Shown here: one piece after another, positions 1-64,000 of the stretch
Numbering within the stretch: position 1 is the stretch's first letter
Layout of the letters: each line of letters opens with the position of its first letter
Assembly (NCBI GenBank): GCA_963762145.1
Contig: CAVXJS010000021.1
Span: forward strand, 1,120,001 to 1,184,000
Length of the DNA: 64,000 bases
Origin: an uncultured Candidatus Rokubacteria bacterium
GTDB taxonomy: Bacteria > Methylomirabilota > Methylomirabilia > Rokubacteriales > CSP1-6
Direction of reading: 5' to 3'
Made by a program: the position numbers and the translations under genes
Notes under the pieces: model-generated
The model's input: only the letters and a program-made list of their open reading frames with translations
The model's database searches: none
Told to the model about the DNA's origin: nothing

Positions 1-311
1 TCCAGCATGAGCCGGGCGCCGTCCCGCGCGGGGCGATCCGGACCCACGGTGATTACCGACTGGGTCATCACCTCCCCGACCGTCAGCTTGGTGAGCAGAT
101 GATTGATCTCCCACACCGACAGGCTCGTAGCCTGCGACGGGAGGTTGAGCCGGATGTCGCGGTCGGTGATGATGCCCAGCAAGGCGCCGCTCGTGTCCTT
201 CACCAGCAGGTGGCGGATCCTCTCCTTGGCCATGAGATCCCGGGCTTCCAGGACCGGGGTCTCGCGACCCACCGTGATCAGGCCGCCCGACATCAGTTCC
301 CGAATCGTCAT
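1..311 (-). CDS. CBS-pair protein (AcuB-like), runs off window edge
   Basis: Manual translation MTIRELMSGGLITVGRETPVLEARDLMAKERIRHLLV..GIITDRDIRLNLPSQATSLSVWEINHLL; GAGG RBS; paralog of 7829-8275; not in ORF track. Confidence 0.9.
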   Translation of the reverse strand, partial: MTIRELMSGGLITVGRETPVLEARDLMAKERIRHLLVKDTSGALLGIITDRDIRLNLPSQATSLSVWEINHLLTKLTVGEVMTQSVITVGPDRPARDGARLML

Positions 312-337
312 GGCATCCTCCGTCGATCGACCACATT

Positions 338-353
338 CGCAAGCCGCGTGCCG
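338..353 (-). promoter_or_regulatory. sigma54 -24/-12 promoter
   Basis: CGGCAC-GCGGC-TTGCG on minus strand, upstream of ATG at 311. Confidence 0.8.
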
Positions 354-416
354 AGTGCCCGAGCGTCTCCGACAACGGGTTTCCGCGGACTTGCGCTTTT
401 CCCGCCTGCGCCGCGG

Positions 417-434
417 TGGGGAGTCTCCGTCCCA
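417..434. promoter_or_regulatory. candidate enhancer (UAS) palindrome
   Basis: TGGGG-AGTCTCCG-TCCCA. Confidence 0.6.
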
Positions 435-698
435 CTGGGGCGCGGTGGCGTCGGGTGCTTCCCCTACCCTGCCCTCTCCCCTCATGGGGGAGAGGTGCTG
501 TCTGCGTTGCGGACCGGGCGAGTCGCCTCGAACTGGCCCTGGCGCGCGTAGTCGATGGTCTCGCCGAGGATCCGCGCCATCTCCTGGGCGCGTGGAAACC
601 CATCGAGTTACGCTCCGCGGTCGGCCTGGCCCGGTCGATCGCGGCTAGCCAGATCGCGATACGACGAGCGAGCGCAGATAGATCCTCTGCTTGGCCCT

Positions 699-1157
699 TT
701 AGCGAAGGGACATGATGACGTCCGCGCACTCTACCGAGCAGTTCGCATCTGCGCGGACGATGTGGCGCAGCACGTCAGTCTCCGTCAAAATCCCCACTAC
801 GCGCCCCGTTTGCACGACCGGGAGCGACCCAATCCTTTTTTCGACCATGATGCGGACGGCGTCGGCTACGTCGTCGCTTGGCCCGACAGTAATCACCTCT
901 GTGGACATGATCTGGGCAATCCATACCTCCTTGAGGAGGATATCCACCGAGTTGCTGCATAGTTCCTTGAACACGCCAGGCGAGAAGAGATGGCGACGGA
1001 GATCGCGATCCGTGACCACCCCCACGAGCAGCCCTTCCTGGTTCACGACAGGCAGGTGGCGGATGCGCATGCGATGCATTCGCGTCACGGCATCGAGGCA
1101 CGAACTAGAAGGCGCAATGGTGGTGACATGCCGACTCATCAGTTCCCGGACCAGCAT
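699..1157 (-). CDS. CBS-pair protein
   Basis: MLVRELMSRHV..IRHLPVV..GVVTDRDLR..GSLPVV..GILTETDVL; paralog of 57964-58422. Confidence 0.9.
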   Translation of the reverse strand: MLVRELMSRHVTTIAPSSSCLDAVTRMHRMRIRHLPVVNQEGLLVGVVTDRDLRRHLFSPGVFKELCSNSVDILLKEVWIAQIMSTEVITVGPSDDVADAVRIMVEKRIGSLPVVQTGRVVGILTETDVLRHIVRADANCSVECADVIMSLR

Positions 1158-1375
1158 AAGAGGCCTCCTTGCCCTGACCGGGCCGTAACATCCGTGCACT
1201 GGTCCAATCGGTGCAACTGCGCCAAGCCGACGCGTGCGGCGCCAGTCGCTGTCGCCCTCGCGGCCTCACGTTTAGCACCGATCCGGGACAGTCGCCGAGC
1301 CTCGCGCGCTCCGGCGCGAGGTCGCTCGGCATTGCTGCTTCGACTCGTTCGCATCGCATGGGATCATCCGGAGAT

Positions 1376-1391
1376 TGCATCGCGGATGCCA
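1376..1391 (-). promoter_or_regulatory. sigma54 promoter
   Basis: TGGCAT-CCGCG-ATGCA. Confidence 0.75.
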
Positions 1392-1456
1392 CCCACCTCT
1401 AATGCGAAGACTCGCGTAGTTAGGAGTAGCCCGGGGCAAGGTCGCGCGGTGACATG

Positions 1457-1474
1457 TGGGGTGGCAACACCCCA
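1457..1474. promoter_or_regulatory. candidate UAS palindrome
   Basis: TGGGG-TGGCAACA-CCCCA, perfect arms. Confidence 0.7.
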
Positions 1475-1583
1475 CGGGCGACGTCAATGTCCCGCTTTGC
1501 CAACGACGCTGGCTTGGCGAGGCGGACGTCGATCGGGCCGTGAAGCGTGCGAGTCCCACGTCGGCGGCGGGCAGCCGCCTCGC

Positions 1584-1601
1584 TGGGGCGGTCCATCCCC
1601 A
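1584..1601. promoter_or_regulatory. candidate UAS palindrome
   Basis: TGGGG-CGGTCCAT-CCCCA. Confidence 0.7.
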
Positions 1602-1680
1602 GGTGGGGCACGGCACGGACACACCGAGTGTCCGCCGCTATTTACCTCCTTATTTGACGCGGGTTGCGGCCACCAGACCG

Positions 1681-1696
1681 AGGCATGGGCATTGCA
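1681..1696 (+). promoter_or_regulatory. sigma54 promoter
   Basis: AGGCAT-GGGCA-TTGCA upstream of the HlyD gene. Confidence 0.75.
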
Positions 1697-62079: not shown

Positions 62080-62103
62080 CGTGTCCTCCTTGGCACGGGG
62101 AAT

Positions 62104-62119
62104 AGCAACGGCGGTGCCA
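62104..62119 (-). promoter_or_regulatory. sigma54 promoter
   Basis: TGGCAC-CGCCG-TTGCT; A-tract plus IHF-like AACCAGAGGGTTG at 62137-62149. Confidence 0.9.
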
Positions 62120-62171
62120 CCGGAGAAAAACAAGAAAACCAGAGGGTTGCAGCGTCGGGCACACCGATAGT

Positions 62172-62208
62172 TGAGGCAGCGCCTCCCCGCTGGGGCAACG
62201 GCGCCCCG
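62172..62208. promoter_or_regulatory. tandem candidate UAS
   Basis: TGAGG-N8-CCCCG and TGGGG-N8-CCCCG, 19 bp apart. Confidence 0.7.
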
Positions 62209-62214
62209 GTGCGG

Positions 62215-63615
62215 TTAGGCTCTCAGGTCGTACTTGTTGATCAGCCGGTGGAAAGTCTTGCGATCGATGCCGGCGGCCTTGGCGGCGGACGAGACATTGC
62301 CGTCATGACGCGCCAGCAAGTCCCGGAGATACGACACTTCCAGGACCTGGAGCCACTGGTCCTTCGCCGCCTTGAGCGTCAGATCGGACCCGATTGGTTG
62401 GCCCGCCAGCGAGGCGGGACCGTCAGCCGCCGCGGCCGGCCGCGGGACCGGCTGCGCGACGTGATCGGGCAGGTCCCGCACCGCGACCGCGTGGCCATCG
62501 GCGAGCGCGCAGGCCCGCTCCATCACGTTCTGGAGCTCGCGCACATTGCCGGGCCAGCGATACCGCTCGAGCGCCTCGATGGCCGCGTCCTCGAGCGCGG
62601 TCACCCGCGTCTGGCCGAAGCGCTTGAGGAAGGCATGGGCGAGGAGTCGAACATCCCCCGCACGCTCCCGCAGGGGCGGCAGCCGGATAGCAATGACGTT
62701 GACGCGATAGAAGAGCTCCTCCCGGAACTGCCCTTTGGCGATGGCATCGCTGAGATCACGGTTGGTCGCCGAGACGACCCGCACGTCCACGTCCACCAGC
62801 GCGGTGCCGCCCACCCGTCGGATCTGCCGCTCCTGCAGTACGCGGAGTAGCTTCACCTGGAGGGTGGCGGGTAGCTCGGCGATCTCGTCGAGGAACAGCG
62901 TACCGCGGTGGGCCGTCTCCATGAGCCCAGACTTGGTGCGCACGGCGCCGGTGAACGCACCCTTCTCGTGGCCGAAGAGCTCGGACTCGAGGAGCTGCTC
63001 CGGCAGCGACGCGCAGTCCACTGGCACGAACGGCTGGCTCGCGCGCGGGCTGTTGGCGTGGATGGCGCGCGCAATCAGCTCCTTGCCGGTACCGGACTCG
63101 CCCAGGATCAGGATGTTGGCTTCCGAGCGCGCCGCCTTCTTGACCAGCTCGAAGACCTGCGCCATTGCCGAGCTACGCCCGATGATGTTCTCGAGGCCCA
63201 AGGCCTGCTGGAGCTGCTGGCGCAGGTTGCGATTCTCGACCTGGAGACCACGATGCCGGAGGGCCCGCTCGACCGCCACCCGGAGCTGATCCACCGAGAA
63301 ATCTTTCGGTAGGTAGTCGAAGGCCCCTTCCTTGACCGCGGCCACCGCCGATTCAATCGTGGCGAAGCCGGTGATCATGATGATGGGCAGCGCGGGATCG
63401 AGCTCGTGGGCCTGTCGGAGTAGCGTCAGGCCGTCCATGCCCGGCATCTTGAAGTCGGTCAGCACCAGGTCGGGTCGATCGCGCTCCAGGATGGCCAGCG
63501 CGGCGGCGCCGTCCCTGGCCGTCGTGCACAAATACCCCTGGCGCGACAGGATGCGGGTGCAGTTCTCCAGCATGTCGGGTTCATCGTCGACGATCAGGAC
63601 CCGCGGGGCGCTCAT
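62215..63615 (-). CDS. sigma54-dependent response regulator (NtrC-family bEBP)
   Basis: REC domain, GESGTGKE, ESELFGHEKGAFTGA, LFLDEI, WPGNVRELQN, C-terminal HTH. Confidence 0.96.
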   Translation of the reverse strand: MSAPRVLIVDDEPDMLENCTRILSRQGYLCTTARDGAAALAILERDRPDLVLTDFKMPGMDGLTLLRQAHELDPALPIIMITGFATIESAVAAVKEGAFDYLPKDFSVDQLRVAVERALRHRGLQVENRNLRQQLQQALGLENIIGRSSAMAQVFELVKKAARSEANILILGESGTGKELIARAIHANSPRASQPFVPVDCASLPEQLLESELFGHEKGAFTGAVRTKSGLMETAHRGTLFLDEIAELPATLQVKLLRVLQERQIRRVGGTALVDVDVRVVSATNRDLSDAIAKGQFREELFYRVNVIAIRLPPLRERAGDVRLLAHAFLKRFGQTRVTALEDAAIEALERYRWPGNVRELQNVMERACALADGHAVAVRDLPDHVAQPVPRPAAAADGPASLAGQPIGSDLTLKAAKDQWLQVLEVSYLRDLLARHDGNVSSAAKAAGIDRKTFHRLINKYDLRA

Positions 63616-63712
63616 CTGGCTCCCGGAATCATCGCCGAGAACCCTATTCAGATCAAATCCCCTAGAATGCCGCGCTGATGCGGTCGCGCACATCCGGCAG
63701 CCACGCACTCGG

Positions 63713-63751
63713 CGGGGCGCGGCCGCCCCGAACCGAGGTTGCTATGCCCCA
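63713..63751. promoter_or_regulatory. tandem candidate UAS
   Basis: CGGGG-CGCGGCCG-CCCCG and CGAGG-N8-CCCCA, 21 bp apart. Confidence 0.62.
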
Positions 63752-63771
63752 CCGGGCTCACAAGTCCTGTC

Positions 63772-63784
63772 CAATACCCTGATT
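63772..63784. promoter_or_regulatory. IHF site
   Basis: Reverse complement AATCAGGGTATTG matches WATCARNNNNTTR. Confidence 0.65.
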
Positions 63785-63800
63785 TTGCTCTCGTGTATTC

Positions 63801-63816
63801 CGGCACGCTCGGTGCA
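63801..63816 (+). promoter_or_regulatory. sigma54 promoter
   Basis: CGGCAC-GCTCG-GTGCA. Confidence 0.7.
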
Positions 63817-63864
63817 CGGGTCCGGCCCGGCTGCACACAACCACGGCCTTACAGGAGAAACCAC

Positions 63865-64000
63865 ATGAGTATCCCGATCTCGGATCCACCGCGGCACACG
63901 CCGAGGCCTGTTGCGGTATGGATCCTAGGCGTCCTCAGTGCCCTGCACGCGGCGGGAGCGTTCATCTTCGTGACGGCGGCCCGAACTCCAGCCAATGAGC
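63865..64000 (+). CDS. membrane/exported protein, truncated by window edge
   Basis: AGGAG RBS; MSIPISDPPRHTPRPVAVWILGVLSALHAAGAFIFV. Confidence 0.6.
   Translation, partial: MSIPISDPPRHTPRPVAVWILGVLSALHAAGAFIFVTAARTPANE

Follow-up and report, generated by a model that had tools for sequence, protein, structure and literature searches.

INTRODUCTION

This work concerns a predicted sigma-54-dependent stress-survival island in the genome of an uncultured Candidatus Rokubacteria bacterium. It was analysed in a stretch of 64,000 nucleotides (C21:1120001-1184000, called the window below; coordinates given without a contig name count from its first base). Programmes of a comparable kind have been described. 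In Myxococcus xanthus, the NtrC-like regulator NmpR, which responds to hypoxia via a haem kinase, acts at seven sigma-54 promoters carrying tandem GCGCA-N5-TGCGC sites; its targets include a CBS protein, a universal stress protein (USP) and a P-type ATPase together with the cbb3 oxidase, and its authors liken the regulon to the mycobacterial dormancy regulon (PMC11841059). In the OsdR/DevR systems, USP genes are clustered round the regulator, and OsdR targets include a Zn-dependent alcohol dehydrogenase (Zn-ADH), a pyruvate/phosphoenolpyruvate (PEP) dikinase-family protein, DksA/TraR and Crp-like regulators (PMC5069765). The lxa locus of Burkholderia cenocepacia is an island of ~50 co-induced genes with a motif at 17 intergenic points; it is stated to overlap with the DosR regulon and supports anoxic survival of an aerobe (PMC3721108). 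A survey of sigma-54 regulons, covering neither this phylum nor hypoxia, gives chaperones and USPs among the predicted targets in some classes (PMC12316311). No closer case came out of literature searches on sigma-54 in Rokubacteria and on sigma-54 in connection with dormancy regulons.

The locus shares with the NmpR regulon an NtrC-like regulator, sigma-54 promoters and tandem dyad enhancers, as well as CBS, USP and P-type ATPase genes, the NmpR USP being a single-domain one. It differs in scale, with 22-24 promoters in one island against seven scattered ones for NmpR, and in the enhancer, which is TGGGGC-N6-GCCCCA with 19-21 bp between centres here and GCGCA-N5-TGCGC with 14-15 bp between sites there. 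NmpR signalling uses a phosphorelay formed by the protoglobin kinase NmpU and the hybrid kinase NmpS, whereas the Pfam-scanned open reading frames (ORFs) of the window contain neither a globin nor a hybrid kinase. The NmpR output is directed toward oxygen use (cbb3 oxidase, HemN, hemerythrin) and not toward protein protection. Matches to the Rokubacteria activator from Polyangia are 43-46% identical, which is the general level of paralogues, and orthology with NmpR is unsupported.

The locus resembles the DosR/OsdR systems in having more than one USP, Hsp20 of the alpha-crystallin type, a cation ATPase, a phosphofructokinase (PFK), USP genes grouped near the regulator and a GC-rich palindromic operator; the Zn-ADH, dikinase-family, DksA/TraR and Crp-like entries of the OsdR list are further points of likeness. 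The regulators of the latter are however of the NarL/LuxR type and act at ordinary promoters, in contrast to the sigma-54 promoters found here; of the eight GerE/LuxR-type helix-turn-helix (HTH) matches of the genome, none falls inside the island or close to it, and on C21 the nearest is at 420241. The haem kinases of DosR (DosS/DosT type) carry GAF domains, whereas the sole kinase of the window has no GAF match by Pfam. An earlier note on this DNA, made from the sequence alone, had described the locus as a DosR-like regulon rewired onto sigma-54. Since it has neither a LuxR/GerE regulator nor a GAF kinase, it is to be regarded as an analogue and not as a derivative of the DosR regulon. The DosR-type gene set that the note had enumerated was largely recovered by Pfam: USP, alpha-crystallin (HspX-type), CBS, CtpF-type ATPase, HPF/S30AE-like, PNPOx-like and APH/P-loop kinase families were found, an agreement at the level of families. 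The M50-CBS protease has to be removed from it, as 0 of 6 genomic Peptidase_M50 matches fall within the window.

With lxa, the locus has in common the single island with one repeated intergenic motif, and both include USPs, small heat-shock and BON-type (phospholipid-binding) proteins, PFK, a cation ATPase and genes of alcohol metabolism. The difference lies in the lxa motif, TGA-N6-TCA, which is Fnr/Anr-like and points to sigma-70 promoters activated by a member of the Crp/Fnr family. The island would thus operate in the manner of the NmpR, DosR and lxa programmes and is a member of none; it appears to be a larger variant of known hypoxia-survival regulons, with published precedents. The earlier statement that no such regulon had been described at this scale was therefore too strong. 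The analysis presented below makes it likely that this is a single-activator sigma-54 stress-survival island, run by the local NtrC-type regulator.

RESULTS

Twenty-two sigma-54-type sites in the intergenic regions of one window

The window belongs to a bin of 6.26 Mb in 25 contigs (70% G+C, 88% complete, 5.4% contaminated). Genes were defined using a margin-based codon-bias caller and Pfam, with NCBIfam for some assignments. After masking of Pfam-supported genes, the intergenic share of the window is 10.2% (6,527 bases vs 57,473 coding).

Twenty-two NGGCAN-N5-NTGCN elements had been reported in the earlier note as intergenic, as pointing into genes and as carrying the sigma-54 -24/-12 signature. 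All were found again as GGCA-N7-TGC, with an offset of 1, the earlier coordinate being that of the preceding N. One additional occurrence, 59706(+), lies within a gene, which gives 22 intergenic sites and 1 coding site. Every one of the 22 faces a gene start located 4-178 nt downstream. The canonical sigma-54 consensus is TGGCAC-N5-TTGC, with -24 GG and -12 GC elements at fixed spacing. These elements and their spacing are present in 22/22 sites, and the positions left free by the search pattern also follow the consensus: T precedes GG in 14/22, the first T of TTGC is found in 17/22 and A or T follows GC in 21/22. The consensus derived from the 22 sites is gngTGGCACcngcgTTGCActt (TGGCAC-N5-TTGCA).

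Could the motifs have arisen by chance or from base composition in GC-rich intergenic DNA and have no promoter function? Over the whole window the loose pattern is enriched only about twofold and thus mildly, 23 occurrences against 11.55 +/- 3.72 in shuffles, a count reached by 1 of 100 shuffles. When the intergenic segments themselves are shuffled (n=1000), 1.43 +/- 1.37 sites are obtained (maximum 8) instead of the 22 observed. Comparison with the remaining genome leads in the same direction. GGCA-N6-TTGC occurs 206 times genome-wide, 17 of them in the window where 1.95 are expected; for GGCAY-N5-TTGCW the corresponding numbers are 89, 14 and 0.77. The window is the richest 64-kb window of the genome for sigma-54-type sites.

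A profile search of the genome gave one Sigma54_DBD match for rpoN (210.5 bits, within a 589-aa open frame, C11:886058-886531). Bacterial enhancer-binding proteins (bEBPs) are represented by 21 full-length matches plus one gene with an in-frame stop, and one of them lies in the window. A position matrix built from the 22 sites, and hence circular for those same sites, added no credible sigma-54 site to them: its other hits in the window were two within genes, at 11-13 bits, with none upstream of the kinase, activator or CtpF-like ATPase genes. Scans for sigma-70 consensus sequences upstream of activator and kinase gave no match, a result that is uninformative at 70% GC. Taken together, the 22 sites are supported in silico as real sigma-54-type promoters. 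Of the outcomes that the earlier note had named as refuting its reading, neither a motif density as low as in shuffled intergenic DNA nor a genome lacking rpoN was observed.

The second-richest region for TGGCAC-N5-TTGC-type sites is C19:192001-290000 (6-8 per 64 kb). None of its sites passes the promoter-plus-palindrome test described below, and it presumably represents another sigma-54 regulon.

A shared upstream palindrome at helical-turn spacing

In the 200 bp upstream of the sites we noticed a palindrome, TGGGGC-N6-GCCCCA, which is present in one or two copies at 22/22 sites (<=3 mismatches). It is not present at the intragenic 23rd site, 59706(+). The centres are mostly located 52-115 bp upstream of GG, with one extra copy at 33 bp; where two copies stand in tandem, 19-21 bp separate them. 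Intergenic DNA contains 26 of the 28 copies; the other two, upstream of 54671, fall within the 3′ end of the ATPase gene. In each of five divergent pairs (1377/1682, 22240/22396, 28360/28508, 41541/41751 and 43384/43522), one enhancer is common to both promoters.

In the -125 to -40 region, <=1, <=2 and <=3 mismatches are found in 12, 20 and 22 of the island sites, and in 0, 6 and 45 of the 609 other genomic GGCA-N7-TGC sites; the consensus was taken by eye from the same 22 regions, whose mismatch counts are favoured by this. Genome-wide and cross-genome counts provide independent tests. With <=1 mismatch, the palindrome occurs 36 times in the genome and 10 times in the window (0.27 expected). 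Since second-order Markov simulation yields ~63 such copies genome-wide by chance, it is their concentration in the window and not their total that is non-random. Promoter-plus-palindrome pairs number 31 in the genome: 21 are in the window, three within 31 kb downstream (C21:1189469, 1192561 and a weak one at 1214909), and the remaining seven are scattered and have poor promoter matches. The centres lie near -52, -62, -72, -82, -92 and -112, that is, at helical-turn steps (Rayleigh R = 0.65, p ~9e-5 at 10.5 bp, a statistic in which the five divergent pairs are not independent observations).

The palindrome thus ties the 22 promoters to one DNA-binding specificity, as supported in silico. Coupling of each site to a phased palindrome that has no counterpart at the 609 other sites, and conservation of the arrangement across genera and families (see below), make a chance or compositional origin of the motifs hardly credible.

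The enhancer core GGGC-N6-GCCC (e.g. 39890-39907, 41627-41644) has the letters and spacing of the OsdR/DevR box core AGGGCCGATCGGCCCT (PMC5069765). This is probably a coincidence, because the word carries little information at 70% GC and the DNA-binding domains are unrelated; very speculatively, unrelated regulators may have converged on one operator word.

The island as a whole spans C21:1120339-1192561 (~72 kb) with 24 promoter-plus-palindrome units, 22 of them within the window. By co-orientation, ~62 of ~70 genes would lie behind the 22 promoters, the extents of the units being predictions. The predicted sigma-54 promoters are given below with strand, palindrome copies (upstream activating sequences, UAS) and putative transcription units.

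339..352, minus strand: UAS 417-434 and 436-453; CBS-pair gene 3-311, extending to C21:1119880
1377..1390, minus strand: UAS 1457-1474; CBS-pair gene 699-1199
1682..1695, plus strand: UAS 1584-1601; HlyD / ABC ATPase / ABC-2 permease 1797-6965, DUF2238 6967-7752
12510..12523, minus strand: UAS 12596-12613; USP 12045-12485, CBS 11621-12034, ADP-forming acyl-CoA ligase 9531-11624, USP 8912-9379, USP 8324-8893, CBS 7829-8275
16880..16893, minus strand: UAS 16945-16962 and 16965-16982; two conserved genes of unknown function, 16199-16876 and 15774-~16181
19179..19192, minus strand: UAS 19264-19281 and 19280-19297; DksA/TraR 18718-19089, cytochrome c 18407-18721, PFK C-terminal fragment 17973-18410, Zn-ADH 16996-17976
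22240..22253, minus strand: UAS 22305-22322, common with 22396; 79-aa ORF 21986-22225, MgtA-type P-type ATPase 19439-21973
22396..22409, plus strand, divergent to 22240: UAS 22305-22322; OmpA-like 22415-22963, glutamate dehydrogenase 22983-24089
28360..28373, minus strand: UAS 28428-28445 and 28447-28464 (common with 28508); Hsp20 27865-28305, PCMT 27183-27833, USP 26739-27176, 67-aa ORF, PEP synthase 24074-26485
28508..28521, plus strand, divergent to 28360: DUF308 28547-29113, unknown gene 29239-29871
30441..30454, minus strand: UAS 30528-30545; Hsp20 29944-30384
32135..32148, minus strand: UAS 32232-32249 and 32252-32269; CBS 31622-32089, 72-aa ORF, USP 30723-31172
39813..39826, minus strand: UAS 39890-39907; HU 39484-39792, CBS 39047-39487, P-loop protein 37683-39050, Hsp20 37273-37686, Lon 34877-37432, L,D-transpeptidase 33168-34880, peptidase M15 32623-33171
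41541..41554, minus strand: UAS 41627-41644, common with 41751; unknown gene 41112-41513, AIR-synthase-related 39950-41167
41751..41764, plus strand, divergent to 41541: DUF4015 41787-42881
43384..43397, minus strand: UAS 43461-43478 and 43480-43497 (3 mismatches each; common with 43522); CBS 42901-43290
43522..43535, plus strand, divergent to 43384: second-lowest score (13.0 bits, CTGC at -12); NAD-dependent epimerase 43562-44713
48317..48330, minus strand: UAS 48383-48400 and 48402-48419; Hsp20 47818-48264, triple-BON protein 47028-47702
50322..50335, minus strand: UAS 50410-50427; BON 49938-50288, unknown gene 49410-49931, PNPOx-like 48738-49400
54671..54684, minus strand: UAS 54749-54766 and 54768-54785, in the 3′ end of the ATPase gene; HPF/S30AE-like 54261-54656, GroEL 52619-54244, CBS 51962-52615, HhH (PolX-N-like) 51027-51965
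62105..62118, minus strand: UAS 62172-62189 and 62191-62208; conserved core operon of USP 61570-62079, USP 61127-61573, APH plus two APS-kinase-like domains 58915-61323, receiver-only protein 58529-~58918, CBS 57964-58458
63802..63815, plus strand: lowest score (9.9 bits, GGTGC at -12); UAS 63713-63730 and 63734-63751; 82-aa membrane protein from 63865, SNF-family transporter just past the window

Three promoters (22396-22424, 54656-54684 and 16867-16893) have only 4-15 nt between the -12 GC and the first in-frame start codon. Unless a later start is used, mRNAs from these promoters would be leaderless or nearly so.

The local activator and its recurrence in relatives

Three further genes of the island, two of them with proposed regulatory roles, are the following.

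62215..63615, minus strand: NtrC-type enhancer-binding protein, 466 aa (Pfam and translation)
12656..14809, plus strand: CHASE3-PAS-PAS-HisKA-HATPase histidine kinase, 717 aa (Pfam), without a sigma-54 site of its own
54696..57326, minus strand: Type IIA (Ca-type, CtpF-like) P-type ATPase, part of the island, with conserved synteny in relatives; no sigma-54 site found upstream

The NtrC-type activator with GAFTGA to which the earlier note had assigned the programme is intact. By Pfam it is composed of a receiver (Response_reg, 6.7e-32), an AAA+ (Sigma54_activat, 2.1e-72) and a Fis-type HTH domain (HTH_8); its translation contains the Walker A sequence GESGTGKE, GAFTGA and the receiver Asp in LVLTDFKMPG. 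The activator may autoregulate, because an enhancer (UAS copies 63713-63751) lies just upstream of its own gene, 98-136 nt from the start codon.

The nearest public relatives of the activator gene come from metagenome bins named Candidatus Methylomirabilota, Rokubacteria or Rokuibacteriota; some contigs with other taxon names are also among them, probably through mis-binning. Orthologues form a distinct group of 61-90% identity, the next matches being at <=47%. A single orthologue (56-91% identity, E <= 1e-150) is present in 123/251 genomes of the phylum, a tally that takes in two unpublished genomes (G221 and G038), and in 53/104 high-quality ones.

Promoter-plus-palindrome pairs follow the orthologue. 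At 23 orthologue loci (321 kb) there are 38 pairs, with at least one in 20/23, compared to a single pair at 57 paralogue-only loci (915 kb), which are on average less GC-rich than the orthologue loci. The pair is usually located directly after the orthologue gene, like 62105 in this genome. In some relatives these promoters form islands of 6-12: there are 6 pairs within 19 kb in G001, 7 within 29 kb in G002 and 12 within 54 kb in G136, and G247, from another family, has 9 in 41 kb, including two perfect palindromes. G185 has just one pair in 120 kb. G057, from another class (2.75 Mb, 59% GC), encodes a 56% orthologue beside a kinase, with 0 pairs in 80 kb; its enhancer word may be different. 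The predicted island is thus conserved, with varying size, in Rokubacteria-type genomes.

Hsp20 genes gave a similar picture. In the activator-bearing G153, G159 and G097, Hsp20 orthologues of 52-87% identity each have a pair. G074 and G076 (98-100% complete, no activator match) encode only Hsp20 paralogues of <=36% identity, without a pair. In G156 (91% complete, no activator match) a pair is found at an Hsp20 orthologue of 83% identity; the activator gene may be missing from this assembly, or else activator and pair are not strictly linked.

The palindrome might also be the site of a different regulator, another bEBP or a non-bEBP, with the local activator controlling the neighbouring operon only. 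Such a regulator would have candidates among the ~21 other bEBPs encoded, any of which could own the enhancer, and the G156 pair would be accounted for. The presence of the pair beside orthologues and not beside paralogues argues against this, as does the fact that each relative examined has one orthologue, clearly separate from its paralogues (<=50% identity). Moreover, a palindrome precedes the activator's own gene, and the position and phasing of the palindromes suit a bEBP enhancer. We regard this explanation as improbable. Attribution of the whole island to one local regulator, as the earlier note had proposed, is thus strengthened by the palindrome common to 22/22 promoters and recurring beside activator orthologues; hypoxia would be a possible signal only.

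A candidate sensor kinase

The kinase 12656-14809 is the sole one in the window. In locus L004, a full-length orthologue (62%) adjoins the activator gene and is divergent from it. In six others (L007, L008, L011, L017, L020 and L024), the gene in front of the activator, on the same strand, encodes a shorter PAS kinase. The island kinase is the best homologue of those shorter kinases in its own genome, with 47-51% identity over the PAS-transmitter part against <=38% for the next. We consider it moderately likely to be cognate to the activator.

For the second PAS domain (PAS2, residues 363-483), the best PDB relatives are FixL haem-PAS domains (E 3e-15 to 2e-13); these make up seven of the top eight matches, the sixth being a multi-sensor kinase, and DosP comes afterwards. 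The His of FixL RSRHDSY, which we take to be the haem ligand, is aligned with the His of RERHVAH in PAS2, a motif retained in the L004, L010, L021 and L018 kinases. FixL-FixJ differs in other respects: the presumed partner here is an NtrC-type bEBP and not FixJ, and CHASE3 and a further PAS domain are present. An oxygen, nitric oxide (NO) or redox signal is on these grounds possible only.

Gene content and traces in RNA libraries

The window contains 8 of the 18 USP matches and 4 of the 5 Hsp20 matches of the genome. The island further encodes ~11 CBS-pair proteins, two BON proteins, MgtA-type and Ca-type P-type ATPases, HPF/S30AE-like, GroEL, Lon, PCMT, PNPOx-like, HU and DksA/TraR proteins, a protein with an APH domain and two APS-kinase-like domains, and a receiver-only protein. 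Metabolic and envelope functions are represented by an ADP-forming acyl-CoA ligase, PEP synthase (PpsA), glutamate dehydrogenase (GDH), Zn-ADH, an FNT channel, cytochrome c, OmpA and an L,D-transpeptidase with an M15 peptidase. Genes for a nitroreductase, a ferredoxin or a nitrate reductase were not encountered in the window.

Beyond the window follow an SNF transporter, MerR, a Crp/Fnr-family regulator, COX1-like genes and a NirK-like copper oxidase. In C21:1184001-1200000, positions 4644-9683 hold the Crp/Fnr-family regulator, two COX1-like ORFs, possibly of the NO-reductase type, and the NirK-like two-domain oxidase, which is preceded by the pair at C21:1192561. At the other end, a DUF294-CBS nucleotidyltransferase and a DEDDh exonuclease (C21:1117184-1119255) follow the CBS gene of the 339 promoter in the same orientation, so that the island may start a few kb ahead of the window.

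Four RNA-library runs from three studies contain short contigs that match pieces of island genes with 0-1 differing letter: PpsA, GDH, both Hsp20 genes, DUF308, the unknown gene at 29.4 kb, a CBS gene and HU. The runs contained 5-6% of the sampled words and consist of contigs, which convey neither starts, strand nor level, and gaps are uninformative. We take the matches as a weak hint of island expression.

A proposed survival programme under one activator

In the single-activator scheme, the regulator 62215-63615 would be phosphorylated on its receiver domain, would assemble on the palindrome enhancers and, using ATP via the GAFTGA loop, would open sigma-54 closed complexes, turning the island on together. 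The CHASE3-PAS-PAS kinase 12656-14809 would be the likely phosphate donor. The trigger, the weakest step of the proposal, might be oxygen, NO or redox state, because PAS2 is FixL-like and keeps the position of the haem-ligand His. The output would be a non-growing survival state. USP and CBS proteins would contribute nucleotide sensing; Hsp20, GroEL, Lon and PCMT protein protection and repair; the HPF-like protein ribosome hibernation; the two P-type ATPases ion homeostasis; BON, OmpA and L,D-transpeptidase envelope changes. ATP would be supplied at substrate level through the ADP-forming acyl-CoA ligase, PpsA, ADH and GDH.

The same sigma-54 and activator architecture could also answer heat, desiccation, osmotic stress, starvation or stationary phase instead of low oxygen, with an extracytoplasmic cue received via CHASE3, the outermost sensor domain of the kinase. 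Four Hsp20 proteins, GroEL, Lon, PCMT, BON and OmpA suit proteotoxic or desiccation stress at least equally well, and Myxococcus reportedly has a sigma-54-dependent heat-shock system (HsfA/HsfB with lonD). In addition, six relatives pair the activator with a kinase devoid of the FixL-type His. Such a signal is rather unlikely in view of the FixL-like PAS2, of the ADP-forming acyl-CoA ligase, ADH, FNT channel, cytochrome c and PFK remnant, of NirK (with its own pair), COX1-like genes and a Crp/Fnr-type regulator at the downstream end of the island, and of the broad overlap with described hypoxia regulons.

Other points, besides G156 and the abundance of bEBPs, weigh against the single-activator scheme with its oxygen, NO or redox trigger. 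The rpoN gene is on a different contig (C11) of a bin whose completeness and contamination were given above. The kinase, the activator, the CtpF-like ATPase, one USP and a few other genes are without a sigma-54 site. In this genome 48 kb separate the kinase from the activator, and the activator-adjacent kinases of the L007 type, in the six relatives, have a different PAS domain without the His. By FixL numbering, the distal Arg and other FG-loop residues are presumably not conserved in the PAS2 alignment. The by-eye origin of the palindrome consensus has been mentioned, and the RNA-library contigs could be DNA carry-over.

Rokubacteria and other Methylomirabilota are abundant, uncultured soil bacteria with large genomes. 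That one NtrC-type activator and one enhancer word control a whole dormancy programme across the order holding most soil Rokubacteria, with 24 promoters and ~65 genes in this genome, is a bolder claim, which we would place just short of an even chance. If so, few sigma-54 regulons under a single activator would to our knowledge be as large, and no other would be dedicated to survival without growth. Because a sigma-54 promoter stays silent unless its activator is present, the island would act as an all-or-none dormancy switch; this, if true, could help to explain the resistance of these bacteria to cultivation. The predicted circuit is defined by sequence from sensor kinase, activator, enhancer word and promoter class to ~60 target genes. 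It would represent a third way of regulating one survival gene set, next to the LuxR-type control of DosR/OsdR and the Fnr-type control of lxa, and would resemble the NmpR case on a far larger scale, making the evolution of dormancy regulons comparable across phyla. The enhancer-plus-promoter signature could be used to mark dormancy genes in metagenomes, and the 22 promoters could serve as probes for soil metatranscriptomes, for instance from oxic vs waterlogged soil.

Further observations on the window and its surroundings

DNA runs from soil metagenomes of two studies contain 67-95% of a 5.2-kb test stretch. No tRNA genes or Rfam families were found within the window. Frames are disrupted or truncated at 1797-6965, 44713-45790, 50331-51135 and 17973-18410. 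In the HlyD / double-ABC / ABC-2 operon (1797-6965), the codon-position GC signal and Pfam pieces switch frame at least 5 times. The 44713-45790 and 50331-51135 stretches hold aminotransferase pieces in two frames and the C-terminal third only of a Na/sulfate symporter, and at 17973-18410 just the final ~50 residues of the PFK profile are present. The frame-disrupted genes may be due to indel errors of long-read assembly or be true pseudogenes.

A second USP cluster is found at C21:911109-944205, with 7 USP-domain matches and an M50 peptidase gene (933545-933973). It has no sigma-54 site inside and no GerE-type regulator nearby.

The gene pair 15774-16876(-), encoding proteins of ~222 and ~135 aa behind a promoter of its own, recurs in L014, L018 and G002 at 60-79% identity. 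For the 222-aa protein, only unnamed or DUF4079-like atlas clusters were retrieved, with a recognition value below the usual bar.

The HU/IHF-family protein 39484-39792(-) is encoded by the first gene of the largest sigma-54 operon. HU could aid enhancer-promoter looping and hence provide positive feedback. In the same HU-CBS-Hsp20-Lon operon, the nearest atlas clusters of the 455-aa P-loop protein 37683-39050(-) belong, with near-maximal score, to the cyclic 2,3-diphosphoglycerate (cDPG) synthase family, and its sole PDB sequence match is the cDPG synthetase 9sxb (E 6e-4). As a lead, the island may make a protective or phosphate-storing solute via this cDPG-synthetase-like protein.

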